DNA from: Chiloscyllium plagiosum
Lineage: Eukaryota
Assembly (NCBI RefSeq): GCF_004010195.1
Contig: NC_057759.1
Location: forward strand, 5,052,657 to 5,116,656
DNA length: 64,000 bases
Direction: 5' to 3'
In this document: positions 4,901 to 42,273 of the stretch, in pieces
Numbering within the stretch: the first letter of the stretch is position 1
Layout: each line of letters starts with the position of its first letter
Position numbers and translations under genes: made by a program
The notes under the pieces: generated by a model
What the model saw: the letters and a program-made list of their open reading frames with translations, nothing else
The model's database searches: none
What the model was told of the DNA's origin: nothing

Positions 4901-5118
4901 GGTGGTACGTGTATGGAATGAGCTGTCAGAGGTAGTGATGGAGTCTGGTACAGTTGCAATATTTAAGAGGCATTTGGATGGATATATGAATAGGAAGAGT
5001 TTGGAGGGATATGGGCCGGGTGCTGGCTGGTGGGACAAGACTGGGTTTGGATATCTGGTCAGCATGGACATGTTGGACCGAAGGGTCTGTTTCTATGCTG
5101 TACATCTCTGTGACTCTA
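1994..5118 (+). mobile_element. Near full-length CR1-clade LINE (HER1-like) with frameshifted ORF2
   Basis: APE motifs (CIYFNARGL, DIIAITKTWL, SDHN), RT motifs ([36 protein letters not shown]) and a HER1-type 3' tail ending CTCTGTGACTCTAT. Confidence 0.92.
2434..2634. mobile_element. Fold-back Penelope-like element nested in the LINE
   Basis: Inverted arms; 15-bp TSD TTGTATTA(C/T)AGACCC at 2419-2433 and 2635-2649. Confidence 0.85.
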
Positions 5119-5450
5119 TAAGAACATTGATGGGAAATTAGCAGAGACCCAGTTTGATGAGATGTCTGAGACAATTTAGGAACAGATAGATGACAAAGCA
5201 GACTTCTTTAGCTCAGGTATTTTAACTGAGTTACAGCAGAAAGATGAAAATTTAAAGCAATTGTATCAAAAGGCATACACATAAATAATCCAAATGTGTC
5301 CCTGAATGTTATTATCTTAAAAATGTCTTAATGAGGAAATGGAGACCATCACATATTCAGGCAGATCAGAAATGGGCAGAAATTTATCAAGTTGTATTGC
5401 CAGTGCGTTAAAGAAAGGACATCTTGCGAGTAGCGCATGAGCTACCTGCA
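5119..5450 (+). mobile_element. Continuation of the Gypsy element, integrase N-terminal region
   Basis: Translates to ELQQKDENLKQLY...LMRKWRPSHIQADQKWAEIYQVVLP...ILRVAHELP; contiguous with the protease region in the paralog at 39370-40760. Confidence 0.7.
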
Positions 5451-5732
5451 TAGATTATGTGTTTGGAATTCACATTAGTTAATTGTCATCTCTGTCTGTG
5501 ACAACTATTCAGCAAAGGATTAATTCTGTCCTTCTCAGTCATACACAAACACCATGTAAATATGCTTCATCCCGGTTGGAGGATTTGAGCTATAAGCAGA
5601 GGCTGAATAGGCTGGAACTGTTTTCCCTGGAAACAGTTTCCCTTATAGAAGTTTATACAATCATAAGGCGCATGGAGAAGTGGTGGAGGCTAGTACAATT
5701 ACAACATTTAAAAGGCATCTGGGTGGGTATAA

Positions 5733-7139
5733 TGAGAAAGCCTTAAAACTTGTCCTGAAACATTTAGTCTAAATGTAATGTTGAATTATAGAACACTTGC
5801 TGCACAGGAGAAAATAAACAGGGTAGGCAGGGAGGCATCAGGCCACAAAAGGGGGAATCCAGGATGTGCAGAAGATAAAAACATCTGTTCTCACCAAGTG
5901 ATGTCAGGATGCTCAAAAGCAATTAAGAACATTTGCCCTAACATCAATGAATCTGTGTAAAAAGAACACAGTGATAACATTCACAGTTGTTAAATTGTGA
6001 AATTAATGACAGTGTTTGACTGTGATCTCAGAAACTTTGTATCATCTTAGAAGCATGTCAAAAGCCTTGTAATAAACAGTCAGGTCCTACCAATAATAGT
6101 GGGTTCTTATTACCCTTTTGTGTGTGTGTGTGTGAGAGAGAAAGAGATGCATGTTTTGAATTTATTTGCATTTTGGACTTTATGATTTTGAGTAGCCATC
6201 GCTGATTATGAAATGTAAACTCTGTAAAATATAATATTGATGACGCTTTAACTTAGCCTTCTTACAGACCATGACTGCCCCACTGTCAATTCTAACTCAT
6301 CAGATCTTCTATCTGCTTTGAATTTGAATCACAACCCTGAAAAGAAATAATGTTTAATTTGAGACTAATGAAATCATTTAAAATTCAACCTTGTGGTAAC
6401 ATTTCAGCCCTAGATATAGAATGATGCTGTATTTAAGATAAAAAGCAGGAGTCTGCTCCCAGTTTAAAAATTATTCTAAACCTAACATTGTGTCAGAATC
6501 TCTTCAATCTGTTAGGAAGCCATTTTATGGCCAAAGCTTGCCCTGCTTGCTAAGAAGCCATTTTGTAAAACAATGATATCTGACATGTGAGCTGTGCAAG
6601 GTTACCTTATGACCTCTTACACTTAGTTTAGACTGGTACCTCTTTATGATAGGGACTTACCTCACCAATCTGACTCAGCTGGATCTGTTTTTCTCACCTG
6701 ATGGATGGTTAAGGGCCTACAGGAGTGATCAGTAAAGCGCACACAGACCTGTTAATTAACTTCTCTTCCTTACAAATTATTGCCTTTCCACTGTGTCTAA
6801 TTAAGAACATGCAGTGCTTTTTGTGAAATTTTGTAAAAAGGAAGCCTGTTTGAGACAGAAGAGTGGAGTAGCCTGTGAGGGCTCTTAAAGGAAGAGCCGG
6901 TATCCTACTCTTCTAAGGTTTTAGAACCTTAGCTAGCCCGACCATTAGGTGTCAATGTTACGTTGTAACAGTGATGCTATTGGTAAATAAAGGGGAAGGC
7001 TAAAATTAAACTAAACTGTTTGTAAGAGGTTTTCATTCCAGACTACCAAAGAGTACGATCTCCATGATGAACCAAGAGAGGCTTATAGGGCTGAGTCCAC
7101 AAGGGATTCTCTGGGATGTCTCAAATCTGTACTTTAACA
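5733..7139 (+). mobile_element. Probable solo LTR of about 1.4 kb inserted in a LINE 3' tail
   Basis: TG...CA termini; splits the HER1 tail GGGTAT|ATGAATAGG; imperfect 4-bp TSD ATAA/ATAT; AATAAA near 6986; absent from the paralogous tail near 39080. Confidence 0.7.
6118..6142. repeat. (TG)n(AG)n microsatellite
   Basis: Seen directly in the sequence. Confidence 0.85.
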
Positions 7140-7810
7140 ATATGAATAGGAATGGTTTAGAGAGAGATGGGAAAAGTGGTGGCAAATGGGACTAGATTAG
7201 GTTAGGATATCTGGTCAGCATGGACTGAAGGGTCTATTTCTGTAGATCTCTATGACTCGACGACTCTTCAGTAATTCTTGCCCTGTCGGTGACCACAGTT
7301 TCCCTCCATCTCTGTATTTAACCCCAACTTCACTGATGGTTGTTGAAACAATGCAACAATGTGGCCTATTTGTCTATCTTCATTGTAACTTTGAAACTGC
7401 CCTTAATTACTGCAAATTTTAATGCAGTTCCTGAATGTCTACTTTGGATGAGGATTCAGTTTATCTATCTTCAAAGCTGTTGTGTAAACGTCAATGGGCT
7501 ACATGCCTTCTGTTTGTTAGAGGCAGCTGGTCACTCTTTGCTTTGAACGGAGGAAGTATTACAGCGTCTTAGTCCCTCAGGTGGTTTTCTGGAGGAAGAC
7601 ACAGGGACACCACCTGTAAATCAACATGAGGCTAGTCTGGTAATATTGCACTGATCATTGTCACATTGATTGCATCTTCATTAGGATGTGTGTTGATATT
7701 TCTTTAAAGCCAACAACTTAACCAGAACCACGGATCTGACTCCATTGTTTCCCTGAGCTGCTCCTTGTCTGGGGATTGTGTTTGTTTTAATGTGATTCGA
7801 TACCAATTGA

Positions 7811-7919
7811 TTTGGAGATGCCGGTGTTGGACTGGGGTGGACAATGTTAAAAATTACACATCAGGAGCTTCCAAAAAAAAACCTTGGACTTTAACCTGGT
7901 GTTGTGTGATTTTTAAATT
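7811..7919. mobile_element. Collapsed fold-back Penelope-like element (family of 10510-10710)
   Basis: 12-bp TSD GATACCAATTGA (7799-7810, 7920-7931); single unoccupied site in the paralog near 38390. Confidence 0.8.
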
Positions 7920-8195
7920 GATACCAATTGAGTGAGACCCAGAAACTGAGCAACAACTGCCCAGTGCCATGAATGGGAGTACTCAATCACCAGGATGCTT
8001 ACACAGTTCAATATTCAACTCCCCAACTACCTGTTGGAAATAGGAAAAACGGCGCTATTTCTAATGTTTTTACCAATACCCCAGTGTATGTCCTTTTATA
8101 AGAGTATCACATTCCTACAGTTGGTCCACACAACCTCAAGAAACAGCGGGAAACAGATTGAAATTAAAACAGGGTTCAGAGCATTGAAAACCACA

Positions 8196-8537
8196 GAATG
8201 ACCCACAGCAGCTTCTTCCCGCTCTGCCTCCCTCAGCAGGCCCACACACAGCCCGAGAAAGGCCTCTCTCTTCCCCCCAGCCCGCTCACTCCAAGTTCCG
8301 GGACCAGTTCCTGCTCCGCTCGGCCTCTTACAAACAGCCCCCGGTTCTCCCTGAACTCACCCCGAATCAATCCCGGTCTCCCATCCCGATGTGCTGCTGG
8401 AAGGAGCCTGCTGTTCCCTCGCTTCCCTGGGCGCTGAAAAGGTTCGGTCCCAGACACAGTTGGGGCGGGAGTGAGCTGGAGGCAGAGCTGGATGATCAAA
8501 GCCATTTCCCTGCTCTGTCTGTCACTCAGTTTCCTCT
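8196..8537 (-). promoter_or_regulatory. GC-rich promoter/first-exon-like cassette, copy A, head-to-head with H4
   Basis: Reverse complement of 36763-37055 and 20384-20650, with internal deletions; GC box; splice-donor-like GGG|GTGAGT on the minus strand. Promoter function is inferred. Confidence 0.5.
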
Positions 8538-8539
8538 CC

Positions 8540-8600
8540 GGACCCGCCCCTCACTCTCTGTCAGCTCTTTCTCAGTCAGGTCGGGTCGGGCTGTATAAAA
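8540..8600 (+). promoter_or_regulatory. H4 proximal promoter
   Basis: GC box CCCGCCCC at about 8543-8550, TCAGTCAGGTCGG resembling the H4 subtype element, TATAAAA at 8594-8600. Confidence 0.7.
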
Positions 8601-8647
8601 AAGGAAGGGGAGGCAGCTCGGCTCCCATTCGGCAGCGATTGGAGTGA

Positions 8648-8968
<321 letters not shown>

Positions 8969-9000
8969 TCAAAAAACGACCCTTTTCCAGTGAACCCAAA

Positions 9001-9040
9001 GGCTCTTTTAGGAGCCACCCAAACCCTCCAATAGAGAGCG
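9001..9040 (+). terminator. Histone 3' stem-loop and downstream element of H4
   Basis: GGCTCTTTTAGGAGCC (9001-9016), then ACCCA and purine-rich ATAGAGAGC. Confidence 0.9.
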
Positions 9041-10509
9041 GAGACCTGAGGACGGGGAAGGCAGCGCAACACTAGTGTAGTGTTGTCGGTTATTTCACAT
9101 ATGCCGTAATTTAAAATTATTTCCATTCCGAAAATGTCCTAATACCGTGTTCTGCGGTGCGGCAGAGACCATTACGAGTGGACGGTCCACTTTTTTGCTG
9201 TTTACCGTGGCCAATGCTTTTATAATTGTAAGCATTCCTACAGTGTAGCTAAGATGCTATTCGGCGAATCGAGCCAACTGTTCTGCAACCTGGTTATTTC
9301 ATGTCCGCTATCGCATCGTGACTTGTAATTGTAAGATGTTGTAGCAGCATTCTGCCCATCCAGCTTGTCCATTCGATTATGCCTGATATTTCTCCCACTT
9401 ATTCTTGTGCCTGCTCCCCGTAACCTTCGTTTCTCTCTCGTGATTACCTGTCTGTCTCAGTAATAACATCAATGTGTACTTGGCTGTCCATGTCATGAAT
9501 CGTCTTTTATTTATTGTGGAACCCAGACATTTAATGTTACAAATTGCAGTATTCGTATTTCCGACGCATAATATTCGGCTCAGTTTTGTTTCTGGGAGCC
9601 GATGGATATCTTAATGGTGCGTTCTTTCCATCTGCCCGTTCAGACAGTGATTACAAATTGTCTTCAGGCAAGTAATAATCTGGATGAAATAAAAATATCT
9701 TGATCAAGTGTGCTTCTTTAATTTTATCGGTGTACACTGTATTAGCTCGACGGGCTTTCGATTGATTCACGGCGGATACAAGTTCGGTTGCTCATCCAGA
9801 GAGAGCAGAAAGTCATCGGTGTCATTAGTATTTCTATCGGAAGTTAGTTAAAATCAAAAACCGCAGGCAGCGGCAGTGAAATTTGCAACTAACGAGACCT
9901 TCATTCAGGGATTGTGAAATTTATGAAAAAATATAGTAATAAGTGTGATTTTAACATAAAAGTTTTGGTATTGGGTTAGATATTTGTGGAAAAACCCTAT
10001 CTCCTCATTGACTCCCTTTGCGTTAACATGGCTTGTGATGAGGTGGAGGCAGGAGAAAGAGGGGGAAAATGGCGCAGAGACCAACGGCTTATTTTCAAAT
10101 TTGTAAATGCCCGCCATCACGTATAAAAGAGCAGCAAATTTTACAGAGAACACATGAGTACGTACACGTTGACTAATTTCGTAATCGAAAAAGCAACGTT
10201 CGGACAATTTCACTTTACCCATTCCCGCATTTACAGCTGAAAAATGCCTCACTGGTGTTCAATCTGCTCTCTCTCTCTCCAGAAGCAGGGGATAAAAGAC
10301 TGGATAGGAACCGAGCAGAGAATAAAGCGCAGAGGGTCAGGGACCGTTCCTTACTATATCCTGCAGCGACACTGGGTCAACCCACCTCTTCCTAATGCAC
10401 TTAAAAGGAAATGTGAATCTAATGTGAGGTCAAACGCGATCAGGGTCATTCGAAACTCATAAGATATTATAACTAAAGACAGATCATTCAGGCAGTGACC
10501 GTTCAATAA

Positions 10510-10710
10510 TTCGGAGATGCCGGTGTTGGACTGGGGTGTACAAAGTTAAAAATCACAACACCAGGTTATAGTCCAACAGGTTTAATTGGAAGCACACTAG
10601 CTTTTTGCTATAAATTCTGTTACGATCGAGCCCTCCACAATCACCTGATGAAGGAGCGTCGCTCCGAAAGCTAGTGTGCTTCCAATTAAACCTGTTATGT
10701 GATTTTTAAC
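10510..10710 (+). mobile_element. Fold-back Penelope-like element containing a hammerhead motif
   Basis: Inverted arms; 12-bp TSD ACCGTTCAATAA (10498-10509, 10711-10722). Confidence 0.85.
10642..10676 (+). ncRNA. Minimal type I hammerhead ribozyme, family A
   Basis: CAC-CUGAUGA-A-GGAGC(GUC)GCUCC-GAAA-GC-UA^-GUG: intact core, helix I CAC/GUG, palindromic AGCU at helix III. Confidence 0.8.
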
Positions 10711-10789
10711 ACCGTTCAATAAGAAATCCTGTAGTCTAGGACACTTAGAATTTATCATAAAATGCGATTATTTCTCTGCTCCCATAGAC

Positions 10790-10913
10790 ATTCAGATGAA
10801 GGGATTTTGCACGAAACATCGATGTTCCTGCTGCTCGGATGCTGCCTGAACTGCTGTGCTTTTCCAGCACTGCACTCATCTAGACTCTGGTTTCCAACAT
10901 GTGCCCTTGTTTT
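10790..10913 (+). mobile_element. Penelope-like terminal-repeat fragment with a decayed hammerhead
   Basis: CAGATGAAGGGATTTTGCACGAAACATC; 10-bp TSD TCCCATAGAC (10780-10789, 10914-10923). Confidence 0.75.
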
Positions 10914-11027
10914 TCCCATAGACCGTAACAATATCCAATTAAATGGAGCGTGGAATTTATTGATGTCCGGGACAAGGCTAGCGCTCTCCACATTAAAAGG
11001 AAAATAAATGAATCCGACGGAAAGTTT

Positions 11028-11068
11028 AGCCCCTTTCACAGCTACTGTGAGTGGCTCTTAAAAGAGCC
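11028..11068 (-). terminator. Histone 3' stem-loop and downstream element of H2A
   Basis: Minus strand GGCTCTTTTAAGAGCC (11068-11053), then ACTCA and AAAAGGGGCT. Confidence 0.92.
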
Positions 11069-11098
11069 TTTTGGCAGTCAGATCCAAGAATGTCCGCT

Positions 11099-11660
<562 letters not shown>

Positions 11661-12345
11661 AGGGCCCGGGGAGGAGGGCGGAAAGCACCCGTGCCAAATC
11701 ATCAACCGCTTTCTTTCCAATTTGAAAAGCCCGCCAATTTCCAAACAAATGTTTTACATGAAAAATAAAGTACAAAAAACTGAGGACGTTTAAAAAACAT
11801 TAATCCAATTGTTAATTTACTTTTAGTTTACGCTCCGTGTTACTGTCCCTCATTTGCCGACATCTATCTGTCCATTTCTGATTTTGAAAGTGGGTTTTTT
11901 TCGAAACCTTGCAAAGAAGCTGAAACAAACCGGGCCAAACTGAAGTCTGCAACCGGTCTTTTCACTTCACATTTCTTTAGCACACCAAACATGCTGAGAA
12001 AGTGGCACACAACGTTCTTCCGGCTTACGATCAATAGAGAACACGGATTTTAGACGATCTTTTAAAGCCGTCCTCCCTTATCGCTCTCAATCAGATTCAA
12101 CAAAAGCTCGACATTTCAGTCCGGTAGCAGTGTTGGTGTTCTCTCGGTTCAGTTTGAAAGTCTCTCTCCGACAACAGGAAGTGGGACTGAAAGACGCGGT
12201 CACTTACTTTTTTGTCTGCCGCGGGTGAATATACAAGATGAAAAATGACTCACTTGTAAAAACAAATGCATATCGCACTAAAATTAAAAACACCTCGTCC
12301 AGAATCACATGTAAGCAAAACAATCCAATCGTAAAGAATTGATTT

Positions 12346-12383
12346 AGCTCTCAGGGATGTTGTGGGTGGCTCTTAGAAGAGCC
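12346..12383 (-). terminator. Histone 3' stem-loop and downstream element of H2B
   Basis: Minus strand GGCTCTTCTAAGAGCC (12383-12368), then ACCCA and TGAGAGCT. Confidence 0.92.
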
Positions 12384-12424
12384 TTTGGGTTGTGGATGTG
12401 TGTGTCTCAGTGCAATGCGGTCCT

Positions 12425-12805
12425 TCACTTGGAGCTGGTGTACTTGGTCACCGCCTTTGTGCCCTCCGACACGGCGTGCTTGGCCAGCTCCCCGGGCAGC
12501 AGCAGCCGCACGGCGGTCTGGATCTCCCGGGAGCTGATGGTGCTGCGCTTGTTGTAATGGGCCAGGCGGGAAGCCTCCCCCGCGATGCGCTCGAAAATAT
12601 CTTTGACGAACGAGTTCATGATGCTCATGGCCTTGGAGGAGATGCCGGTGTCGGGGTGAACCTGCTTCATCACTTTGTAGATGTAGATGGCGTAACTTTC
12701 TTTCCTGGTCCTTTTCCTCTTCTTGCCGCCCTTCACTGGCGCCTTCTTGATGATTTTCTTCGCGCCCTTCTTGGAGGCTTGCTGTGCTTTCTTCTCATCA
12801 GCCAT
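12425..12805 (-). CDS. H2B: Histone H2B, replication-dependent
   Basis: 126 aa, [17 protein letters not shown]...[26 protein letters not shown]...AVTKYTSSK; ATG at 12805, downstream of the TATA box. Confidence 0.98.
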
Positions 12806-12857
12806 AGCGTCGCTCACTTTCAGACACAGAATAAGGGAAAGCGGGCTCGGAGCTCCC

Positions 12858-12968
12858 TTTTTATAGACTGACGACGTCAGCAATGCTAATGAGGGATGGG
12901 GAAAGCCTGGTTTCTGATTGGGTAGTTTACCCGGAGTCATTCCCAAACACTCACTTTCTGTGATTGGT
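12858..12968 (-). promoter_or_regulatory. H2B promoter
   Basis: TATAAAAA at 12865-12858, CRE-like TGACG/CGTCA half sites, octamer variant ATGCTAAT (12883-12890) and two CCAAT boxes. Confidence 0.75.
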
Positions 12969-13212
12969 TAGTGTGGGACGCAATGTGGACCTGTCAGAAT
13001 CTGCAACGAAATGTGAAGTGGATGGTGATTCTGTTCCTGTCAGTCTGACTGAGGGAGATTTGTTTTGTGTCTGTCACACAGAAAGTGACTGTGGTATTGG
13101 CTCGATTTCCTTTTGCTCGTTGATGTGGGAGTGGAAGGGTGTGTTTCAAGTTCCGCATGTCTGTTTCTGGTCCTCTCTCTGGGCTGGAATTAACACTGAG
13201 CTTGCCACTTTT

Positions 13213-13540
13213 CTCAGTGGTTAGCACTGCTGCCTCACCGCGCCAGGGACCCTGCTTCGATTCCAGTTTTGGGCGACTGTCTGTGTGGAATTTGCACATT
13301 GTCCCCGTGTCTGAGTGGGTTTCCTCCGGGTGCTCAGTTTTTCTCTCACAATTCAAAGACGTGCAGGGAGTTGAATTGGCCATGCTAACTGACCATAATG
13401 TTCTGGGATGTGTAGGTTAGGTGCATTAATCAGGGATAAATGCAGAATAATGAGGATTGTGTCTGGGTGGATTACTCTTCCGAGGGTCGGTGTGGACTTG
13501 TTGGGCCGAAGTGCCTAATTCTACACTGTAGAGATTCTAA
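13213..13540 (+). mobile_element. HE1-type tRNA-derived SINE, slightly 5'-truncated
   Basis: CAGTGGTTAGCACTGCTGCCTCAC head, GTGGGTTTCCTCCGGGTGCTC core and a LINE-like tail. Confidence 0.88.
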
Positions 13541-15179
13541 GACTGTGAGTGTTTTCTAGGTTTGACGTTGATGGAATTCGTTCTCAACTGCACGGAGTTG
13601 GAGAGAAATGAGTACCTGTTTAAAACTTTTCTTGAGTCATGAGTTGAGAATGTCTGTCTTGACTGTGGGATTAGTATATTTCTGAGAACTTGATTGCTAA
13701 CTGTGGGCCCAGAGACCGACCTGTAACTGTGTTTTGCAAGTAACTACCGTGGATCAGAACCACGTTGCCGCTGTTTTTAATTTAGGAGCATTGAACTTTC
13801 CCACAGGGATTTAGAGCATTTCTCAGTCTCATACAAATGCTTGTTAACCAGCAACTGTTAGCATGCTATACATGTATCACTTTAACTTTGTATCTGTAGA
13901 GTCCTTATTTAGACATTTGGCATGAATTCAACACCTGGTCAATTGAGGCTCTGGTCCTCTGTGTAATAGTCAATTAATGTTACGTCAAGACAGGTTTTAT
14001 TCTGTATCCACCAAATACTGGTGTAAGCAGTAAAACTTTACACCGTTTGCCTGCCACTTGGAAATGTTCCTCCAATCTGTGCCTATCCATTTCTGGGAGG
14101 TAAAGCATTTTTGTTTACCCTATTTCACAGTCTTTACATGTCAGTATGTTACTGGACTGTAACTCAAATCTTCTGAAGTGTAACCTGTTGTTTTTACTCT
14201 TGAGGTGTCAGTCATTAACATAAGAATGTTTCTCATTTAGTATCTACAATTCTGAGTGTGACTAAACACCACTTTGGACAGTCTCAGGCAGGGCTCCCTC
14301 CCCTCCACACCATATCCTTTGAATATCTGCTTCTGTGCATTGACAGTAAGTTTGTATTTATAACTGCAGCATTTAGTAAGGGACAATATGTTGTAATTGC
14401 AGAAATTGGCAATAACAATGTTGCTGCTGATGTCACACTGTTCATGTCAGTTTCTCACCAGTGGATAGTTGCATTGTATCCTGACAATTCATTGTTTTGC
14501 AACTGACTCCGTATTTCATTCTGTAACTGCCAGTTTGTTGTTTCTAATCTTGTTTTTACTCAGTTTCTGTCAACCACTGGCATGTGAGAGAGCAAATATC
14601 TCAATATTTCTAACTTTCAGATGAAATGAATGTTTTTTTGACTCCATCCCTGTTATGTTCCGATGATTTGTAATTAAATCTGTCACTATGTGATCTGTGA
14701 GCACACACAGTAAGTTAGAGATAAAGTGAAAGGTGAATGATGCCTCGCATTTCTGTCATGCAGGGTATACACTAGTTATTAATTTCTTTCAGGGTTGTGT
14801 CAGTGTAAATGTCTCAAAGCTGAAGACAATAAGAAAAATGAGAAGCCTGACATTTTTATCTGCTTGTGTGTACTCAGCTCTGAGAATATGAGAGTGTTAT
14901 CAAAATGTACCTGTCAGTTGTTTTTAATGAATGTGAGAACATTGTTTTAAATCTACACCTGTCAGTTTCTGCAATGTTCTGCAATCTGTACCTGACAGTT
15001 CCAACTACATGAATGGATTTGAAAGTATCTGTACCTTTCAGTGTGTGCTTTGTTGAATAAGTGTGTACTTATAATATTTGGCTCTGTTTAACATGACACT
15101 TGCCAGAAACTGCAGGGGCTCTTTTTACTTCAAATCTCTATTGCTCAACATGAATAAGATTTTATCTATTGCCATCCAT

Positions 15180-16195
15180 GTCCGGGTAGCATGGTGGCAC
15201 ACTGGTGCCAGACACCCAGTTTCAATACTAACCTTGGCTCATTGTGCAAATTGCACTCAGACATGCTCCCCATATCTGCATTGGCTTTGTTATGGCACGG
15301 GGTAAACCCCTTTGCTAATTTAAAAGTAGCAACAGAGAAAAGATTTATCCCATGCAGCAATCTGAAAATTTGATAGGCCAAGAACTAATTAAAGTAAAGA
15401 TTAACAGCTTTATTTCTTAAAGTATAGCAGAAAGTGATTAACTAAAAACTATTGACAACTCCTTCCTCTAACTTATCTTCTATAATACTAGTCCGATAGA
15501 ACTCCTGATTAAGATTTACAAAACAAAACTTCTTTTCTCAAAACCAGGCAGCTTTCGGTTCTTTTCTGTATTCCTGTCTTTGATGTTCTTGGGGATTGTG
15601 CTTCACAGGTTACTAATCAATAAAGGTACCTTTAAGAGAGCTATTTTTTCAGGCAGTCTTGTTACATGCTGTTGGCTTCACAATTCTCCTCCCAACTGTT
15701 CAATTGTTCCTGGTCTTATACCTCCAGAGCATCGGACTATGTCATTGGCTTTTAAGATTGTCAATGTACTCAATTCGAACTGGATTGGTATTTGATATTT
15801 TCGGGATATAATTTAAACTGATTGGTTGAATTCAAATGTTTTTGTCTCCAGGTAAACAGCTACTTGGGTTGTTCGACTAAATGTTACTTTTTTTCGTAAC
15901 ACTTGGTGATGTCCGGTAGTTCTACTGGCTGAAAACTTTCTTAAATGTACAGTACACCCACATCTTCAAAACAGTTTCCTCTGGGTGCTCTAGTTTCCTT
16001 CCACAGTTGAAACATGTACAGGTTAGCTGGATTAGCGAGGGTAAATTGCCCTGTAATATTCAGAAATGTTCAGACGAGGTGGGTTAACTATGGTAAAGAT
16101 GTTGTTATGGGGGCTAGGGTGGGATCTATATCTGTGTGGGATGCACTTTGGCAAGTTATTGCAGACCAATGGGCCGAATGACCTGGAGAAATTCT
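15180..16195 (+). mobile_element. Old HE1-like SINE split by a solo LTR
   Basis: Head at 15180-15287 and body at 15974-16195; uninterrupted paralogs at 32990-33285(-) and 41600-41773(+). Confidence 0.7.
15288..15973 (-). mobile_element. Probable solo LTR of 686 bp
   Basis: TGTT...AACA termini, imperfect 4-bp TSD GCTT/GTTT, absent from two paralogous SINE copies. Orientation is inferred from AATAAA on the minus strand. Confidence 0.7.
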
Positions 16196-17104
16196 ATATA
16201 CTGTAAATGAAAGTGAGACTTTTTAATACTATTGTCAGTCTCTGACACTCTAAATCCGTTTGGATAATTTCCACAACTTTTATTCAATGGTCCAGTTTAT
16301 GATTGTAAGCTATTTTCTGGATTGGTCAGTTTCTGGTCTGAATGTGTACTTTGAATATGAGAGTTTTTTCATCCTGTGTCCAATAATCTCTGGGTATCTG
16401 TTTAAAAGTGTACCTTTTCATGTCAATGTTTGATTTTCCTTTGGACCATTTGAAAACAAAGTATTGATTCAGTCATTTTGTCTGAGATGTGTTCTGTTCT
16501 CTCCTTTTGGAAGCAAATTAAATTGCAATATTTGTTTCAATCTGGCACTTGGCCTGCTATTTAATTCCTCCAGTTTGGACAAAAAGAATTGATACATGAA
16601 TTACATAAAGTCAGAGAGTCAGACAGCAAGTTTAAGCCATGGTGAGATAATTGGATGAATAATTAGTCTGAATTTTTATTCTTTCCCTACGTAATTGGAA
16701 TACATTGTGAACATGCAATAGGTTCAGTATTTTCTAATAAACAAGTAGAATTTACTTTTTGACCAAATTGATGCCATGCATTTTATTTCTATCGGAAGTT
16801 GACTTGTACACTGGGACTAACATACTTCACTCTCACACTGTCCTGGATAACTTGTTTAATGAAATGCTAGTTCTCCCACTTGTGACATATTTGAGGTCAT
16901 GACTTCTCTATTTTTGCCTATAGACCTATTAACCTGACAGTATTTCTGTATGTTGCAACTAATTCTGTACCCACTGTGTATTGGCACCATCTCACTCTTT
17001 GTTCTGTCCAGAAATTATCAGTTTCCTTCAAGTCCTTCATGACATGGATAAGGACAATAACTGGTGCAGTCTGCAACTGTTTGTTCTTCTGTGAGTGCAG
17101 AACT

Positions 17105-20334: not shown

Positions 20335-20650
20335 ACTCAGTGAGTGCAAGAGGTTTGTTTGAAACAGACCGCAATGGAGAGATCAGCGCCCAGGGAAGCG
20401 AGGGAACAGCAGGCTCCTTCCAGCAGCACATCGGGATGGGAGCCTGGGACACAGAGGGGGCTCCGAGACCGGGATTGATTCGGGGTGAGTTCAGGGAGAA
20501 CCGGGGGCTGTTTGTAAGAGGCCGAGCGGAGCAGGAACTGGTCCCGGAACTTGGAGTGAGCGGGCTGGGGGGAAGAGAGAGGCCTTTCTCGGGCTGTGTG
20601 TGGGCCTGCTGAGGGAGGCAGAGCGGGAAGAAGCTGCTGTGGGTCATTCT
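20335..20650 (+). promoter_or_regulatory. GC-rich cassette, copy B
   Basis: Nearly identical to 36920-37055 and to the reverse complement of 8196-8432; donor-like GGG|GTGAGT at 20485. Confidence 0.5.
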
Positions 20651-31200: not shown

Positions 31201-32362
31201 ATACTCTGAAGGCCAGACCTTGATACTATGACACCCAATTAGATTCCGCACTATCAGAATTGGAAAAGTCCATTGCTTTTCTCACCTTGACGTTTAAGAA
31301 CAGCACAGACCTGTTTCTGTGTCAATGTGTTACAGCTTTACTTGTCTGTGAATCCTACAGATACAAACAATTACAGAAAATAAGATCTTTCCCATTCACT
31401 TCAGGAAACATGAACTGAGAACGCTCCTGTCCCACTCTGCTAACTGGCTGTCCACTTTACAGCAAACATTTAAACAGTTCAGTAACACAATGCAGGAAGA
31501 CTGAAGCAGGGTCAAGTGAGTATGGGCATCCTCCCTGTGTCATAACTGTTCCTTTCAAAAATCTTTTTTTATACATAAAATCAGTGCGTATACACAATGG
31601 AGAACAGCCTGAGTATGCTGCGTGAACTGCTGTGCTTTTCCAGGATCACAAATCCAGAAACAGCCTGAGTAGTCAACATTAAATTTTAGTTTAAGTTCTT
31701 CACTAGACAACGTGGCTCTACTCTGTGGCAGCCTGTCACATCTGAGCAGAGTTTTGAAGGAGCAGTCCCATTGAATAGTAGTAATTCCCAAGTACACAAG
31801 CTGTACAAGTGAATGGAAGAGCAGGGCAAACAGTTGCTGACTGCGCCTGTTATTGTCCTTATTCATGTAATGAAGGGTGTGAAGGAAACTGATTTCTGGA
31901 CGCAACCAAGAATGAGATAGTGACAATACACATTGGGTATAGAATAACTTGCAAAGCACATAAATACTGCCAGGTTAGTCGGTCCACAGGCAAAAATAGA
32001 AAAATCATGCCCACAAGGATCACATGGTTGGGAGAGCTAGCATTTCATTAATAAAGTTAAACAGGACAGGGTAAGAGTGAAATATGTCAGTCCCAGTGTA
32101 CGAGTGAACTTCCAATCAAATTTAAATATATGGTATCACATTGGTCAAAAAGTAAACTCCACTTGATTGTTCAGAAATACTGAACCCCCTATTGCATGGT
32201 CACAATGTATTCCAGTTAAGTAGGGAAAGAAGTAAATAAACATTCAGATTAAGTATTCATCCAATTATCTCACCATGGTTTATACTTGCTGTCTGACTCT
32301 ATGACTGTATGTAATTCATGTATCAATTCTGTTTGTCCAAACTGGAGGAATTCGATAGCAGG

Positions 32363-32584
32363 GTACAAACAATGACTGCAGATGCTGGAAACCAGATTCT
32401 GGATTAGTGGTGCTGAAAAAGCACAGCAGTTCAGGCAGCATCCGAGGAGCAGTAAAATCGATGTTTCGGGCAAAAGCCCTTCATCAGGAATACAGCCTGA
32501 TGAAGGGCTTTTGCCCGAAATGTTGATTTTACTGCTCCTCGGGTGCTGCCTGAACTGCTGTGCTTTTCCAGCACCACTAATCCA
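32363..32584. mobile_element. Fold-back Penelope-like element, family B, with a CTGATGA core on each arm
   Basis: 15-bp TSD GAATT(C/A)GATAGCAGG (32348-32362, 32585-32599); unoccupied site in the paralog near 16560. Confidence 0.88.
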
Positions 32585-33550
32585 GAATTAGATAGCAGGC
32601 CAAGTGTCAGATTGAAACAAATATCACAATTTAATTTATTTCCACGACGTGAAAACAGAACACTTCTCTTACAAAATGACTGAATAAATACATCATTTTC
32701 AAGTGGTCCAACGGGAAATCAAATATTAATATGAAAAGGTACACATTCAGACAGATTCAGAGAGATTATTGGACACAGAATGAAAAAGCTCTCATAAAGT
32801 GGTCTTGTTATAAACATGTGAACAATAAATTCAAAATGCACATTCAGAATATAACTTACAATCATAAACCGTACCATAGAATAACAGTTGTGGAAATTGT
32901 CCAAACTGCTGTATACTGTCAGAGACTGACAATGGTATTAAAAAGTCTCACTTTCATTTACAGTACATAAATTTCTCCAGTGCAGATAGAGGTCATTTGG
33001 CCCATCCCCCTGCAACAACTCTCCAAAGCAGGTCCCACGCAGATGTAGATTCCACATTTGCCACAGTTAACCCACTGACACTGCACATCCTTGAAGACTA
33101 CAGGACAATTTACCATGGCTAATCCAGCAAACCTGCACATGTTTGGACCATGCAGGAAAACAAGAGCACCCAGAGGAAACCCATGCAGACATGGGCAGAA
33201 CGTGCAAACTGCACACAGATAATGAAGCATGGTTGGAATTGAATCTGTGTCCCTGGCGTCACTGTGCCACCAAGCCATCCTGATATGGATAGCAATCAAT
33301 GAAATCTTATTCATGTTGAGCAACAGGGATTTGAAGTAAATAGAGCTCCTGCAGTTTCTTCAAGTGTCATGTTAAACAGAGACAAATGTGTAAGTACAAT
33401 CACTTATTCACAGAACACAAACTGACAGGCACAGATACTTTCAGGTACAGATGCAGTCATCCATTCATATAGTTGAAGCTGTCAGGGATAGACTGATGAT
33501 TACACAAACACATTCACATTGCAGAAACAGACAGGTACATTTTGATAATA

Positions 33551-33741
33551 AAAGGAGAAAGTGAAGTCTGCAGATGCTGGAGATCAGAGCTGAAAATGTT
33601 TTGCTGGAGAAGCGCAGCAGGCCAGGCAGCATCCAGGGAACAGGAGAATCGATGTTGAAGGGCTTATGCCCGAAACGTCAATTCTCCTGTTCCCTGGATG
33701 CTGCCTGGCCTGCTGCGCTTCTCCAGCAACACATTTTTAGC
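33551..33741. mobile_element. Fold-back Penelope-like element, family B
   Basis: 14-bp TSD ACATTTTGATAATA (33537-33550, 33742-33755). Confidence 0.85.
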
Positions 33742-34449
33742 ACATTTTGATAATATACTCACATATTCCCAGAGGAAAATCTGACCGGTATATATTGATA
33801 AGTACACTCTTACATTCACCTAGAATCTAATGAGGCAGATTGATAACTAATGTCACATTGACATAGCAAAAGCTGACAGGTAGAGACTGATAATTATACT
33901 CCTATTCACACAGCAGAATCTGACATGGGCAGATAGATAATTGGACCGTCATCTTCACATCACAGAAACTGACAGGGAGAGATAGATAACAAGACAATCA
34001 TATTCAAATTGGAGAGACTGATGGACAGATCAATAACTACACTTCCATATTCACAGATCAGAAACGGACAGGTACAGATGGATAGGCGAAAGTGAGGACT
34101 GCAGATGCTGGAGATTAGAGTCAGGAGTGTGGTGCTGGAAAAGCACAGCAGGTCAGGAATCATCCGAGGAGCACAGATTGCAGGAATATTTCTAAGTGGC
34201 TGGCAAATAGCGTAATGTATTACTGCTTACATCAGTGCTTGATGGATACAGAATAAAACCTCTCTTGAAGTAACACTAATTGACTATTACACAGAGGACC
34301 AGAGTCTGAATGGACAGATGTTGAGTTAATGCAAAATGTGTAAATAAGGACACGACAGATACAGAGTTAAAGTGACACATATATAGCAAGCTTACAGTTG
34401 CTGGTTAACAGGTATTCGCGTAACACTGAGAAATGCTATAAATCCCTAC

Positions 34450-35447
34450 ATAGAGTTGTAGAGATGTACAGCATGGAAGCAGACCCTTCGGTCCAACCAA
34501 TCCATGCCGACCAGATATCCCAACCCAATCTAGTCCCACCTGTCAGCACCCGGCCCATATCCCTCCAAACCCTTCCTATTCATATACCCATCCAAATGTC
34601 TCTAAAATGTTGCAATTGTACCAGCCTCCACCACATCCTCTGGCAGCTCATTCCATACACGTACCACCCTCTGTGTGAAATAGTTGCCCCTTAGGTCTCT
34701 TTTATATCTTTCCCCTCTCAACCTAAACCTATGCCCTCTAGTTCTGGACTCCCCGACTTTGACTATTTATCCTATCCATGCCCCTCATAATTTTGTAAAC
34801 TCTATAAAGTCACCCCTCAGCCTCCGACACTCCAGGGAAAACAGCCCCAGCCTGTTCAGCCTCTCCCTGTAGCTCAAATCCTCCAACCCTGGCAACATCC
34901 TTGTAAATCTTTTCTGAACCCTTTCAAGTTTCACAACATCTTTCCGATAGGAAGGAGATCTGAATTGCATGCAATATTCCAACAGTGGCCTAACCAATGT
35001 CCTGTACAGCCGCAAGATGACCTCCCAACTCCATTACTCAATACTCTGACAAATAAAGGAAAGCATACCAAACACCTTCTTCACTATCCTAGCTACCTGC
35101 GACTCCACTTTCAAGGAGCTATGAACCTGCACTACAAGGTCTCTTGGTTCAGCAACACTGCCTAGGACCTTACCATTAAGTCCTGCTAAGATTTGCTTTC
35201 CCAAAATGCAGTACCTCACATTTATCTGAATTAAACCCCATCTGCCACTTCTCAGCCCATCTGGTCAAGATCCTGTTGTAATCTGAGGTAACCCTCTTTG
35301 CTGTCCACTACACCTCCAATTTGGTGTCATCTGCAAATTTACTAACTGTACCTCTAATGCTCACATCCAAATCATTTATGTAAATGACAAAAAGTAGAGG
35401 ACCCAGTACCGATCCTTGTGGCACTCCACTGGTCACAGGCCTCCAGT
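34450..35447 (-). mobile_element. HER1/CR1 LINE 3' third
   Basis: From PVTSGVPQG through the 3' tail on the minus strand. Confidence 0.92.
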
Positions 35448-35621
35448 ATAAAGCTGCAGGACGCCTAAGCAGTTATTGATAGGTCACTGGGCCCACAGTT
35501 ATCAATCAAGTTCTCAGAAATATATTAATCCCACACTCAAGACGTAACTCAGCTCTTGACTCTAGAAAAGTATGACATAGAAACTCTTTTCATTTCTCTT
35601 CAACTCCATGCAATTGAGAAT

Positions 35622-36625
35622 GAAACCAAAAGAGAAAATGCTAGAAAATCTCAGCAGGTCTGGCAGCATTTGTAAAGAGCGAAAAGAGCTGACATTTCAA
35701 GTCTAACTGACCCTTTGTCAAAACTAATAAAAGGGAGATATAGGGGGGTATTTATACTAGGCTGAGAGAAGGAGAGTCATGGCTCCAGAAGCAAAGGTGG
35801 CAATAAAGAGGTGATAATGTCAGTGCATAAAGAGATTATAGGGAGATTGGGAGCTGTGAATTACCAAGGCTGAAGCCAGTGATTTGTGACATACTGTGTG
35901 GGGGATGGAGGCATGGGTGAAGTCGAGGCAAAATGGAAAACAGTGGAGAAGGGTAGCAAAGGGGGAAGAGGAGAGGAAAAAGGTGATGAGAGAGTGGGGA
36001 GCGAGAAAGAGAGAGACAATCAAGAAATAAGAGATACAGAACAGTGAAAAAAATTTAAAAAGATAAATTAGATTACTTACAATGTGGAAACAGGCCCTTC
36101 GGCAAGTCCACACCGACCCTCCGATGAGCAACCCACCCAGACCCATTCCCTTATATATACCCCTTCACGTAACACTATGGGCAATTTAGCATGGCCAATT
36201 CACCTAACCTGCACATTTTTGGATTGTGGGAGGCAGCACCCGGAAGAAACCCTCATCCAGAGAATGTACAAATTCCGCACAGACAGTTGCCTGAGGGGGG
36301 AATTGAACCCGGGTTTCTGTGAAGCAGCAGTGCTAACCAACGTGCTGCCCCAATAAATAAAATAAATGAAATAAAATTACGGAGCAGAATGAAAACAGAG
36401 GGGTCGAGATGGGATAATCAGCTGAAATTGTTGAATTCAGTGTTGAGACCGGCGGGCTGTAACGTGCCAAGTCGGAAGATAAGATGCTGTTCCTCCAGTT
36501 TGCGTTGAGCTTCCCTGGAACATTGCAGCAGGCCAAGTACAGACATGTGGGCATGGGAGCAGGATTGTGTGTTGAAGTGGCAAAACACGGGAAGTTCCGG
36601 GACCTCATTGCGTACAGACCGAAGA
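35622..36625 (-). mobile_element. Penelope-like 3' fragment with a nested HE1 SINE at 36068-36350
   Basis: PVFCHFN...RKLEEQHLIFRLGTLQPAGLNTEF; the terminal repeat carries a degenerate hammerhead-like TTGACAAAGGGTCAGTTAGACTTGAAATGTC. Confidence 0.82.
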
Positions 36626-36762
36626 ATGAGTTGCATCAACTCCAAGCGTAGAAAACACTCACGGTCAGGTTCCAGCGGATTGTCTAACTTGACAACAAAT
36701 GTAACCACAATTTCAAATGGATGAGTTTCTTTTTCACACAGTGATAAATTCTGTGTTAATTC

Positions 36763-37055
36763 AGAGGAAACTGAGTGAGAGACAGAGCAAGGAAACATCC
36801 AGCTCACTCCCGCCCCAACTGTATCTGGGACTGAACCTTTTCTCCCCAATTCTGACTGTTCCTGAGCAGAGGAGCGCATGCGTGAGGCCCTCCCCCAGCG
36901 CTGCCGTTGAGGGGCATTTACTCAGTGAGTGCAAGAGGTTTGTTTGAAACAGACCGCAATGGAGAGATCAGCGCCCAGGGAAGCGAGGGAACAGCAGGCT
37001 CCTTCCAGCAGCACATCGGGATGGGAGCCTGGGACACAGAGGGGGCTCCGAGACC
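36763..37055 (+). promoter_or_regulatory. GC-rich cassette, copy C, with the most complete 5' part
   Basis: GC box at about 36809-36816, NRF1-like GCGCATGCG at 36874-36882; cut off at about 37055 by a Penelope element. Confidence 0.55.
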
Positions 37056-38252
37056 AGGAGGGGCGTTGGAAATGTGATAGGTGGAAAGAGGTCAAGGTGA
37101 AGGTGATGGGTCGGAGTAGGATGGAGGCGGAGAGGTCAAGGAGAAGACTGCAGGTCAGGAAGGCGGTGCCGGGCTGGAGGGATCCGGCTGAGACAAGGTG
37201 GGGGGAGGGGGGATGAAGAGACTGGTGGAGTCCAAGTTCATCCCCTGCGGTTGGAGTGTTCCCAGTCGGAAGATAAGACGCTCCTCCTCCGACCGTCGGT
37301 TTGTTGTGGTTTGGCGGTGGATGAGTCCAATGACCTGCATATCCTCGGTGGAGTGGGAGGGGGAGTTGAAATGCTGTGCCACAGGTTGGTTGGGTTGGTT
37401 CGTCCGGGTGGCCCAGAGGTGCTCTCTGAATCGCTCCGCAAGTAGGCTGCCTGTCTCCCCAATATAGAGGAGGCCACACCGGCTGCAGCGGATGCAGTAG
37501 ATGATGTGGGTGGAGGTGCAGGTGAATCTGTGGCGGATATGGAAGTTTCCCTTGGGGCCTTGGAGAGAAGTGAGGGGGGAGGTGTGGGCGCAAGTGTTGC
37601 ACCTCCTGCGGTTGCAAGGGAAGGTGCCGGGAGTGGTGGTTGGGTCGGTGGGGGGTGTGGATCTGACAAGGGAGTCGCGGTGGGAGTGGTCTCTACGGCA
37701 GGCTGATAGGGGAGGGGAGGGGAATATATCCTTGGTGCTGGGGTCTGTTTGGAGGTGGCGGAAGTGACGGCGGATGATGCGCTGTACATGGAGATTGGTG
37801 GGGTGGTAGGTGAGGACCAGTGGGGTTCTGTCCTGGTGGCGGTTGGAGGGGCGGGGCTCAAGGGCGGGGGAGCGGGAAGTGGAGGAGATGCGGTGGAGGG
37901 CACCGTCGACCATGTCGGGGGGGAAATTGCGGTCCTTGAAGAAGGAGGCCGTCTGTGTTGTGCGTATTTTGAACTGGTCCTCCTGGGAGCAGATGCGGCG
38001 GAGACGAAGGAATTGGGAGAATGGGATGGCGTTTTTACAGGGGGCAGGATGGGAGGAGGTGTAGTCCAGGTAGCTGTGGGAGTCGGTTGGTTTGTAGTAG
38101 ATGTCCGTGTTGATTCGGTCGCCTGAGATAGAAACAGAAAGGTCTAGGAAGGGGAGGGAGGAGTCCGAGACTGTCCAGGTGAATTTGAGGTCGGGGTGGA
38201 AGGTGTTAGTGTAGTGGATGAACTGTTCAACCTCCTCGTGGGAACACGAGGT
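37055..38252 (-). mobile_element. Penelope-like retroelement (Neptune-like), 5'-truncated, with an open RT C-terminus and GIY-YIG endonuclease
   Basis: About 365 uninterrupted codons: LPFLDL, TDIYYKPTDSHSYL, PCNRRRCNTC, IIYCIRCSRCGLLYIGETG, FRLGTLQPQGMN; CpG-rich, consistent with a young copy. Confidence 0.93.
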
Positions 38253-39369
38253 AGATATAGCACCGTTTATCCTCTCTCCAATAGGTTGTATATTGGGAGT
38301 TGGATATTGAACTGTGTCAGCATTCCCGGTGATGAGTAGTCCCATTCATGGAACTGTGCAGTTTTTACTCAGTTTCTCCATCTCACTCAATTGGTATCGA
38401 ATCATATGAAAAACAAACACAATCTCCAGACAAAGAGCAGCTCAGTGCAGCAATGGAATCCGATCCGTGGTTCTGTTTTAATTTGCTGGCTTATCCTAAC
38501 GAATATGCAATGAATGTGACATTGATCAATATTGCCAGACTCGCTTCACGTTGATTAATAGGCGGTGTCTCTCTATCTCCCTCCAGACAAATACCTGAGG
38601 GACTAAGACACTGTGATACTTCCTCGGTTCAAAGGGAAGTGTCACCAGCTGCCTCGAGCAAACAGCAGGTATGTAGCCCATTGACGTTTACACACAAGTT
38701 TTGAAGATAGATAAACTGAATCCTCATCCAAAATAAACACTCAGGAACAGCATGAAAATCTGCATTTTAATAAGAACATTTTCTACAATGTAGATAAACA
38801 AATAGATCATACTGTTACATAGCAGCTACCTCACAGATGGTTGTTGAAACTAAGTACAGAGATGGGGGGAAACTGCTCATCAACAGTTTCTCTCTCTCCA
38901 TTCTCAGTGCAAATCACCCCCATTTCCAATAAGTGTTATTATTCACAGCCATCAAGTCACAGAGATGTACAGCATGGAAAGAGATCCTTCGGTCCAAATC
39001 GTCTGTGCCAGTCAGATATCCTAACCTAATCTAGTCCCATTTGCCAGCATATTGCCCATATCCCTCTAAACCCTTCCTATTCACATACCCATTCAGGTGC
39101 CTTTTAAATATTGTAATTGTACCAGCCATCCATGCCGTTCATGATTTTATGAACCTCTCCAGAGAAAACAGCTCCACCCTTTCGGCCACTCCCTTGAGCT
39201 CAAATCCTCCAACCTGGATGAAGAACATTTACATGTAGTTTGTCTGTGACTGAGAAGGACAGAATTACTCCTTTACTGAATAGTTGACACATACAGAGAT
39301 GATAATTCAATAATGTGAATTCCAAACAATCTCTGCAAAAGTCTGAGTTTTCCTCACTCCTAAATGATC

Positions 39370-40760
39370 TGCTAGTAGTAGCTCATGCGCTCCTTTCCGT
39401 AACCCACAGGCAATACAACTTGATAAACTTCTGCCCATTTCTCATCAGCCTGAATATGTGATGGTCTCCAGTTCTTCATTAAGACATCCGGGTGCTCCGG
39501 TTTCCTCCCACAGCACTTGTTGGGCTGAAGGGCCTGTTTCCACACTGTAATGTAATCTAATCTAATCTACATCATTTTTAAAGATAATAACATGCAGGGA
39601 TATATTCAGATTTATTTTCTTTGTATGCCTTTTGATATAATTGCTTTAAACTTTCATCTTTCTGCTGTAACTCAGTTAATTTATCTGAGCCAGAGATGTC
39701 TGCTTTGTCATCTATCTGTTCCCGATTTGTCTCAACCATCAGGTCCAACACGGTCTCTGCTAAGTTCACTTCAACTTTCTTATCTGTACTCTTTGATCTC
39801 TCCTATTTCAACCGGTGACTTTGTCACCACACAGTCAGGAAACATCCCAGGATATATGTCCAGCAATAATTCAGTTGCCTGAGTTTTCACTGGCTTTTCA
39901 ACAACAGTAGGCAGCACTCCTACCGTTCTGGCTTTTCAACAACAGTAGGCAGCACTCCTACCGTTGAATCAACAATATCATTAGCAAGGACAAATTGTAT
40001 TCCCGGAGCTGAGAGTTTGTCCAATACTCCTACCAAAACTTCTCCACTCTTCACTGGACACTCTAACCTCACTTCTCACAATTAAGCATTTCTTGTGTCA
40101 ACAAGAATTCCCGTTACTAGTACCTTTTCTGGCATTAGTCCTTTAGAGGAGCATATATCAATCTGTGATGCTGAAAGATGAGGAGAGGATCTTTGTATCT
40201 CTTAATATTGCAACCACTTTACCTGCTCCTCCTGGCCTATGTGAGTAAACTTTACCTTCAGAGGTGGATGGTTTAAGAAGATCTGGTACCTCCGACCAGC
40301 TTGTACATTCTGGTGCAGCTTTCGAGCCTCCTCTGTGCTTTCTATTACCACTCCAACAAAATTCACTGCCTTATCCTGTTTCCTACATCCGGCTTCCCAA
40401 TGCTTTTCCTGACCCACCAACACTGATTTAATGTGGCCTACTTTATTGTAGGGAAAACACCAGAGCTTTTTAACTTCTTTCCCCTTCAAGGGTTTCCTTT
40501 TTATCCTGTGGTAAGTCATCCTTACGATCTTCACCGAGATCTATCATTTCCTTTCCATGTGAGGATTTCTCTTATCCTCAATTTCTATCCCTCATGGATT
40601 GAAATTGGTTTTGGAAGCCAAACTTTGATTTATTGACCAACTCATAACCATCAGCCATTTCAGCTGTCAATCTTGTTATTTTAATTCTCTGCTCTTCCAC
40701 ATGAGTTTTCACTACTTCAGGAAGTGAATCTTTGAACTCCTGTCTGAGTGCCAATTTCCA
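39370..40760 (-). mobile_element. Gmr1-like Gypsy remnant, paralog of 1170-1993 and 5119-5450
   Basis: Gag knuckle, protease-like region, then the integrase N-terminus; contains an HE1 fragment at 39488-39568 and a 38-bp tandem duplication at 39890-39965. Confidence 0.75.
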
Positions 40761-40979
40761 AAGCTTTTATTCAATGGAACAGTTTATGATTGTAAGTTAT
40801 ATTCTGCATCTGTATTTTGAATTTATTGTTCACATGTTTATAACCAAACCACTTTGAGAGCTTTCTCATTCTGTGTCCAATAACCTGAGTATCTGTCTGA
40901 ATGCGTATCTTTTCATGTCGATATTTGATTTCCCTTTGGACGGGCATGTAAACCACAAGAATGTCCCACGGTAGCGTCT

Positions 40980-41187
40980 CCCTCAGCAGGCCCACACACA
41001 GCCCGAGAAAGGCCTCTCTCTTCCCCCCAGCCCGCTCACTCCAAGTTCCGGGACCAGTTCCTGCTCCGCTTGGCCTCTTATAAACAGCCCCCGGTTCTCC
41101 CTGAACTCACCCCGAATCAATCCCGGTCTCCGAGCCCCCTCTGTGTCCCAGGCTCACATCCCGATGTGCTGCTGGAAGGAGCCTGCT
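40980..41187 (-). promoter_or_regulatory. GC-rich cassette, copy D, internal fragment
   Basis: Nearly identical to the reverse complement of about 20408-20613. Confidence 0.5.
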
Positions 41188-41773
41188 TTTGCCATGTCAA
41201 TGTGATTTTAGTTATCAATCTGCCCCATCAGGTTCTAGTTGAATGTAAAAATGTAGTTATCAATATATACCTGTGAGATTCTCCTCTGGGAATGTGGGTG
41301 TTATCAAAATGTACCTGTCAGTTTCTGCATTGTGAATGTTTGAGTGCAGATTTCAGTCTGTACCTGACAGTTTCTGCAATGTGAATGTGTGCAATCATCA
41401 GTCTATCCCTGACAGCTTCAACTATATGAATGGATGAGTGCATCTGTACCTGAAAGTATCTCTACCTGTCAGTTTGTGCTCTGTGAATAAGTGAGTTACC
41501 TCTGTTAAACATGACACTTGCAGAAACTGCAGGAGCTCTATTTACTTCAAATCTCTGTTGCTCAACATGAATAAGATTTTATCTATTGCCATCCATATCA
41601 GGATGGCATGGTGGCACAGTGGTGCCAGAGACATAGATTCAATTCCAGTCTTGGTTCATTATCTGTGTGCAGTTTGCACATTCTGCCAGTGTCTGCATGA
41701 GTTTCCTTTGAGCGCTCTAGTTTCTTTGCATGGTCCAAACATGTGCAGGTTTGCTGGATTAGCCATGGTAAAT

Positions 41774-42273
41774 NNNNNNNNNNNNNNNNNNNNNNNNNNN
41801 NNNNNNNNNNNNNNNNNNNNNNNNNNNNNNNNNNNNNNNNNNNNNNNNNNNNNNNNNNNNNNNNNNNNNNNNNNNNNNNNNNNNNNNNNNNNNNNNNNNN
41901 NNNNNNNNNNNNNNNNNNNNNNNNNNNNNNNNNNNNNNNNNNNNNNNNNNNNNNNNNNNNNNNNNNNNNNNNNNNNNNNNNNNNNNNNNNNNNNNNNNNN
42001 NNNNNNNNNNNNNNNNNNNNNNNNNNNNNNNNNNNNNNNNNNNNNNNNNNNNNNNNNNNNNNNNNNNNNNNNNNNNNNNNNNNNNNNNNNNNNNNNNNNN
42101 NNNNNNNNNNNNNNNNNNNNNNNNNNNNNNNNNNNNNNNNNNNNNNNNNNNNNNNNNNNNNNNNNNNNNNNNNNNNNNNNNNNNNNNNNNNNNNNNNNNN
42201 NNNNNNNNNNNNNNNNNNNNNNNNNNNNNNNNNNNNNNNNNNNNNNNNNNNNNNNNNNNNNNNNNNNNNNNNN
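41774..42273. other. Assembly gap
   Basis: Run of 500 N. Confidence 1.

Follow-up and report, generated by a model that had tools for sequence, protein, structure and literature searches.

Here, we present an analysis of a histone gene unit and a histone-free paralog of it in Chiloscyllium plagiosum. The window, i.e., the whole stretch of 64,000 nucleotides that was analyzed (NC_057759.1, positions 5,052,657 to 5,116,656), lies on contig C50 (8.08 Mb; genome, 3.56 Gb). Based on BLAST collinearity, it contains one filled unit copy (1157..17083, plus strand) with intact frames for histone H4 (8657..8968, plus strand), H2A (11099..11488, minus strand), and H2B (12425..12805, minus strand); Rfam matches place the 3′ stem-loops of H2A and H2B at 11028-11073 and 12342-12388, respectively. 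In the subfamily to which this filled copy belongs, a SINE-like repeat (13215..13530, plus strand) stands in place of part of the right flank. The copy has also undergone a separate 127-bp deletion (8436..8437) that removed the start region of a divergent transcript, and this loss is the mirror image of that in the histone-free copy. tRNA genes were not found in the window, and of its two assembly gaps (19596-20334 and 41774-42273), the first interrupts a cassette copy and hides what comes next, be it H4 or an empty join.

The second unit copy in the window is histone-free (referred to as empty; 31827..40763, minus strand). In a BLAST self-comparison of the window, 40763→31827 is an inverted collinear paralog of 1157→17083, with nine inverted blocks in order that comprise 4154 aligned bp at a mean identity of 79%. 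These include 1157-1994/40763-39942, 5118-5730/39783-39085, 7140-7820/39086-38379, 13577-13729/35624-35470, 13805-14082/34447-34171, 14982-15287/33495-33177, and 15974-17083/33180-31827, in agreement with the original prediction that 40760 to 31818 on the minus strand follows 1170 to 17090 in order. The label of a Gypsy remnant received no support from Pfam in the three ORFs tested there. At the join (36762..36763, minus strand), the equivalent of 8537 is fused to the equivalent of 13187, exactly as had been read, based on the sequence, the paralog alignment, and contigs. In filled units, the left flank of the join (36763..36842, minus strand; homologous to 8436-8537) is situated far upstream of H4, and the right flank (36623..36762, minus strand) past the H2B promoter. 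In the window alignment, the intervening module (8538..13186, 4649 bp) has no match in the paralog apart from short common repeats, which bears out the claim that 4.65 kb with the three histone genes and their promoters is missing; the deletion leaves exon 1 of a divergent spliced RNA. In the five filled units with both ends measured, the module spans 4046-4649 bp. In the window alone, the match to the right of this join consists of 10 bp at 13187-13196 plus 44 bp at 13541-13584 (36666-36623), and it is this thin because the SINE-like repeat in the filled copy replaces ~85 bp of flank. The full homology of 36623-36762 to the filled-unit flank is evident from 19 other copies.

When the genome was searched for the right flank, 38 matches were returned, and each of them was scored; the copy counts are lower bounds. 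Twenty-six begin at the join, and the count of filled versus empty copies that had been suggested stands at 19 to 7 among them. The 19 filled copies with an intact flank start (class F) have H2B upstream DNA in front, and some have partly lost H2B through other events. The seven empty copies are that in the window, four others on C50 (at 1246k, 2097k, 5348k, and 5894k), and one each on C80276 and C82184. The remaining 12 matches form a divergent class, and a further filled class with a SINE in the flank (class S; 14 rows used) includes the filled copy in the window. Based on the join alignment, all seven empty copies have the same breakpoint. They are similar over many kilobases: four reach or partly share the left end at 40763, and three extend 8-10 kb rightward; for the copy in the window, the homology to other empty copies extends at least 10 kb further, to about 26200. 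In a search with the left breakpoint (8490-8660), 29 of 39 matches cross it well, two cross it shortly, five stop there (four empty copies and one other rearrangement), and three start beyond it.

In a tree of the right flank (895 projected columns), all seven empty copies fall to the same side of a branch (93/89), and there are 10 diagnostic columns. We also used a reference-free MAFFT alignment of 24 rows, with 6 of the 7 empty copies, 9 of the 19 F copies, 5 of the 14 S copies, and 4 divergent ones; the empty copy at 5348k was omitted, as its flank stops after 276 bp. Here, the six empty copies form a starred clade (100/99) and have a 53-column gap in common, i.e., a second deletion of 53 bp, which is absent from the nine F and five S rows. 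Empty copies are about 9% apart (Jukes-Cantor [JC] distance of 0.088 in the right flank). In the left-flank tree, which contains the five empty copies with enough columns, four form a starred clade (99/96) nested among filled copies; a single clade for all five is rejected (AU test, p = 0.0003), and C80276 groups with filled units. Because both the join and the 53-bp gap are present in C80276, its left flank appears to have been exchanged. The units are mosaics, and the flank trees are not clean histories. Altogether, we consider it highly probable that the 4.0-4.7 kb module was lost through end-joining from one ancestral copy, which went on to be duplicated at least six-fold. Duplication probably occurred by the same segmental process that spreads filled units, with a later duplication with inversion, neutral decay through retroelement insertions, and the left-flank exchange in one copy as plausible subsequent steps. 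The deletion proposed for the twin in the window is real, but it is not private to this twin, being in all likelihood one old event common to seven copies. Nor is the filled copy in the window the parent of the empty one, as its JC distance from the empty copies is 0.23 compared with 0.16 for the nearest filled class. A date for the event was discarded: at a pedigree mutation rate of 7e-10 per generation (PMC10587355), the JC distance of 0.088 translates to about 6e7 generations, which we judged too old to be credible.

The GC cassette next to the join is not a spacer. Based on RNA reads and splice sites, it is the first exon (exon 1) of a multi-copy, spliced RNA directed away from H4, the strand of which we infer from mate orientation and the splice sites. 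In the window, the exon 1 homolog of the empty copy lies at 36900..37059 (plus strand); 101 RNA reads from the same species (run X21, ~2% of which was read) pile up on this stretch. The 5′ ends of the family, as judged from loose read ends, lie near 36907 and 36967. We presume that the loose ends at these two positions are adaptor-like. The reads leave the sequence at 37059, and the loose letters past this position match an 82-nt exon with an AG acceptor and a GT donor that intact units carry 0.6-0.9 kb farther along. The exon-2 motif has 25 exact matches in the genome, of which 19 are on C50, and the window contains an 82-nt copy with an AG acceptor and a GTATGT donor (38587..38668, plus strand). 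In three empty copies (L089, L092, and L093), an exon-2-like copy also occurs in the right flank, at a depth of ~8 kb, pointing toward the join. The letter of the window copy at 36906 is present in 0 of 22 RNA reads, a count that has no power given dozens of copies. In the window, exon 1 copies are located at 36900-37059 (plus strand), 20335-20484 (plus strand), 41120-41193 (minus strand), and 8371-8437 (minus strand). Exon 1 is present in many copies on C50, stands head-to-head with H4 or H3-H1 units, and is much better conserved than its flanks; it also heads H3-H1 and H2A-H2B units. Cassette copies that are 92-94% alike over 2-3 kb occur on other large contigs (L127 on C39, L128 on C18, and L023 on C101069), and no histone match was found in the 10 kb examined at L127 and L128. 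In searches for a product, Rfam gave no match for the GC cassette, the hits being histone stem-loops plus one snoR12 match far below the cut-off; a 34-codon frame in exon 1 had no homolog in a weak search (none of 14 candidates at E 0.1); and for a zinc-finger product, the downstream stretches had no finger array but isolated motifs of one or two fingers, and none of the best 150 of 12657 candidates maps to C50.

It could be argued that the histone-free unit spread under selected retention because it still carries exon 1 of the divergent RNA together with the promoter. The breakpoint lies ~145 bp from the first mapped RNA 5′ end, and exon 1 is on average 94-99% alike across unit types where the far introns are 72-94% alike. 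Moreover, four of six empty copies have only one to three exon-1 changes each, i.e., 10 in total compared with ~27 under neutral decay for a subset chosen after the fact; this low number could derive from conversion or past selection. However, gene conversion among many copies accounts equally well for the conservation, and exon 1 is more damaged in the empty copies (29/937 changes relative to the majority, 3.1%) than in the other classes (34/2086, 1.6%; 15/1288, 1.2%; and 4/782, 0.5%). In the window copy, the splice donor is lost to a retroelement piece (37060..38345, minus strand) that starts 10 bp before the exon-1 donor position and has a frame of 396 aa with a weak GIY-YIG match at its end (E 2.9e-4, which does not reach the curated cut-off); we take this element to be Penelope-like. 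In addition, the donor is mutated in C80276, C82184 has no match to exon 1, and the copy at C50:2097k has a G-run insertion. The reverse loss, in which the histone genes are kept and exon 1 is lost, is seen in the filled copy in the window, L098, and L108. We therefore regard selected retention as unlikely. Similarly, we give little credence to a scenario of head-to-head two-gene units (histones in one direction, the spliced multi-copy RNA in the other) in which a function of the RNA half led to amplification of the histone-free form and the work was split among copies by reciprocal loss. Rather, the sparing of exon 1 by the deletion would be incidental.

Under recurrent deletion, several filled units would independently have lost the module at one fragile site. 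In favor of this idea, the join varies, with a tandem CTGAATT-type 7-mer across it in five of the seven empty copies; it is missing in the copy in the window and the copy at 5894k, as well as in a contig from a second organism, and the tree is silent on the older state. Also, C80276 has a different left-flank history, and at C50:1230362, the break of an unrelated rearrangement falls ≤3 bp from the left breakpoint of the join. On the other hand, the diagnostic right-flank letters and the second deletion are common to all empty copies examined, and a tandem repeat such as this 7-mer can be gained or lost by slippage and may have arisen later in this way. We consider independent losses very unlikely and favor a single loss. 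In the rearrangement at C50:1230362 (L144), the cassette is broken 3 bp from the left breakpoint and fused to the left-end retroelement remnant of the unit; it could represent another event in almost this position, or it could derive from an empty copy.

TCCTCTC is present at both places named in the original prediction, i.e., at the left breakpoint (8532..8538, plus strand) and near the right one (13171..13177, plus strand); however, it does not have the role at the breakpoint ascribed to it because the right copy ends 9-10 bp short of the true right breakpoint (9 bp in the window). At the right end, F copies have TTCCTCT, 10 further bases, and then the flank, and the filled copy in the window has TCCTCTC and nine further bases. 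Joining at TCCTCT would retain these 9-10 bases, which are missing from all seven empty copies, and simple MMEJ is therefore not supported. At the true join, the sequences overlap exactly by 0-2 bases. The 7-bp repeat TCCTCTC has a frequency in the window of 1.7e-4 per position, and the chance of such closeness is ~0.3% for a 20-bp span, by arithmetic made after the fact. We suggest that a double-strand break was repaired once, using this overlap of 0-2 bases, and that the nearby 7-bp repeat possibly guided a first annealing step. In SD-MMEJ, the join can be blunt or can contain a few inserted bases that create a direct repeat (PMC5728401). The tandem 7-mer over the join in five of the seven empty copies could be of this kind or a product of later slippage; the 7-bp repeat here lies away from the right breakpoint. 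None of the one- and two-step annealing models that we wrote yields the observed letters exactly.

We also considered that the empty form is ancestral and acquired the module by a single insertion, for which the 7-bp repeat would be the target-site duplication. In the right flank, the JC distances are 0.088 among empty copies, 0.158 between empty and F copies, 0.229 between empty and S copies, and 0.224 between F and S copies. The distances to S exceed that between empty and F copies, arguing that the filled class S lies outside the other two. On the right side, H2B upstream DNA lies beside the same flank in four of eight stretches examined from the divergent, still older class. On the left side, three copies on contig C47 run from the left flank across the breakpoint into a decayed H4 at ~81% identity, compared with 91% between empty and filled copies over the same region. 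With filled outgroup copies on both sides, loss is the economical reading, and these comparisons of sequence support loss over insertion, as the original prediction had favored; it most likely happened a single time in the distant past. For insertion speak the 7-bp word at or near both module ends and one tree that was rooted inside the empty copies. That rooting, obtained with a short divergent outgroup (97-130 columns; rows filling 11-15% of columns), carries little weight and was replaced by the distance and MAFFT analyses; in the latter, the root is not inside the empty copies and the root fork is left open, and the divergent rows align credibly over about the first 170 bases alone. Moreover, with a target-site duplication, the 10 bases that follow the right repeat should persist in an empty site, and 0 of 7 empty copies have them; the 53-bp gap in the empty copies is derived; and a module starting exactly at the left breakpoint, free of the left flank, was found in 0 of the 39 matches (one, preceded by an N gap, does not allow a judgment). 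On the right side, the two H2B-upstream matches that end near the breakpoint end in a SINE. Insertion thus seems highly improbable, and loss from a filled ancestor is the reading that we retain.

Misassembly of a scaffold that is repetitive and has gaps is refuted for the join itself: notwithstanding the two N gaps in the window, the join is bridged by independent contigs and by a contig from another organism, and it recurs in seven copies that are about 9% apart. In line with the suggestion that reads should cross the junction, contigs bridge it in three of the four runs compared (from two studies, one possibly the assembly's own sample; 24 runs were listed), with at least 31 letters on each side: X1 (36554-36889, two other letters), X2 (36654-36827, no other letters), and X4 (36651-36841, no other letters, depth 3.4). 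X4 is probably an RNA run, since a spliced join is visible, with DNA carry-over being possible. The X3 contig has merely 23 letters on one side of the join, and X8, X17, and X21 gave no bridging. In the second organism (organism C), one X10 contig bridges the join (depth 5, 15 other letters, and 7 gap letters), suggesting that the loss predates a species split.

C50 carries many H1, H3, H2A, and H2B matches spread over megabases, arguing for a dispersed histone cluster. Distinct unit types lie on this contig (L122, L123, L124, L160, L163, and others), comprising H4-H2A-H2B, H3-H1, and H2A-H2B with no H4 match, and at C50:3.55 Mb, two unit types abut in inverted order, resembling a quintet. A small second cluster of decayed histone genes on C47 (L205, L207, and L208) has a frameshifted H4, one H2A, and one decayed H3, as well as an H4 upstream region but no exon-1 match. 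Among intact copies, H4 is 100% identical and H2B mostly 95-98%, as opposed to flanks with JC distances of 0.09-0.23. H4 or H2B is partially deleted at L021, L028, L038, and L074. More broadly, independent deletions or repeat insertions destroying H4 or H2B were observed at L021, L028, L013, L014/L020, L017/L019/L030, L038, L074, and L045.

Conserved proteins, divergent flanks, pseudogenes, and seven empty copies uphold the proposal of birth-and-death evolution acting on a multigene cassette, and this turnover is ordinary birth-and-death in a dispersed histone cluster. Histone and ubiquitin families are described as well-defined examples of this process (PMC3123226, citing Nei & Rooney 2005, Piontkivska 2002, and Eirin-Lopez 2004). 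The shark units resemble these families in their near-identical proteins, many copies, divergent flanks, and broken or lost members; they differ in that the unit is multigene and at least 15 kb and in that the histone-less form kept duplicating. A preprint reports a large H1/H2A/H2B/H3 cluster on chromosome 28 of the red stingray (bioRxiv 10.1101/2025.06.08.657570). As there, many histone genes in the shark lie on one small chromosome-scale piece (C50); in the shark, H4-H2A-H2B, H3-H1, and H2A-H2B units share an upstream exon, and the stingray passages at hand are silent on units and deletions. We found no published account of the unit or its empty form in a search that mostly did not cover subscription journals; bioRxiv supplements may list the loci.

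The loss of the histone trio is one among many death events in the cluster and leaves the established view of histone families unchanged. It provides a clean example of birth-and-death hitting an entire histone trio, and the common join is a usable marker with which to order duplications in the shark histone cluster and compare species. The finding would have greater import if the divergent RNA is functional and expressed from histone-free copies.
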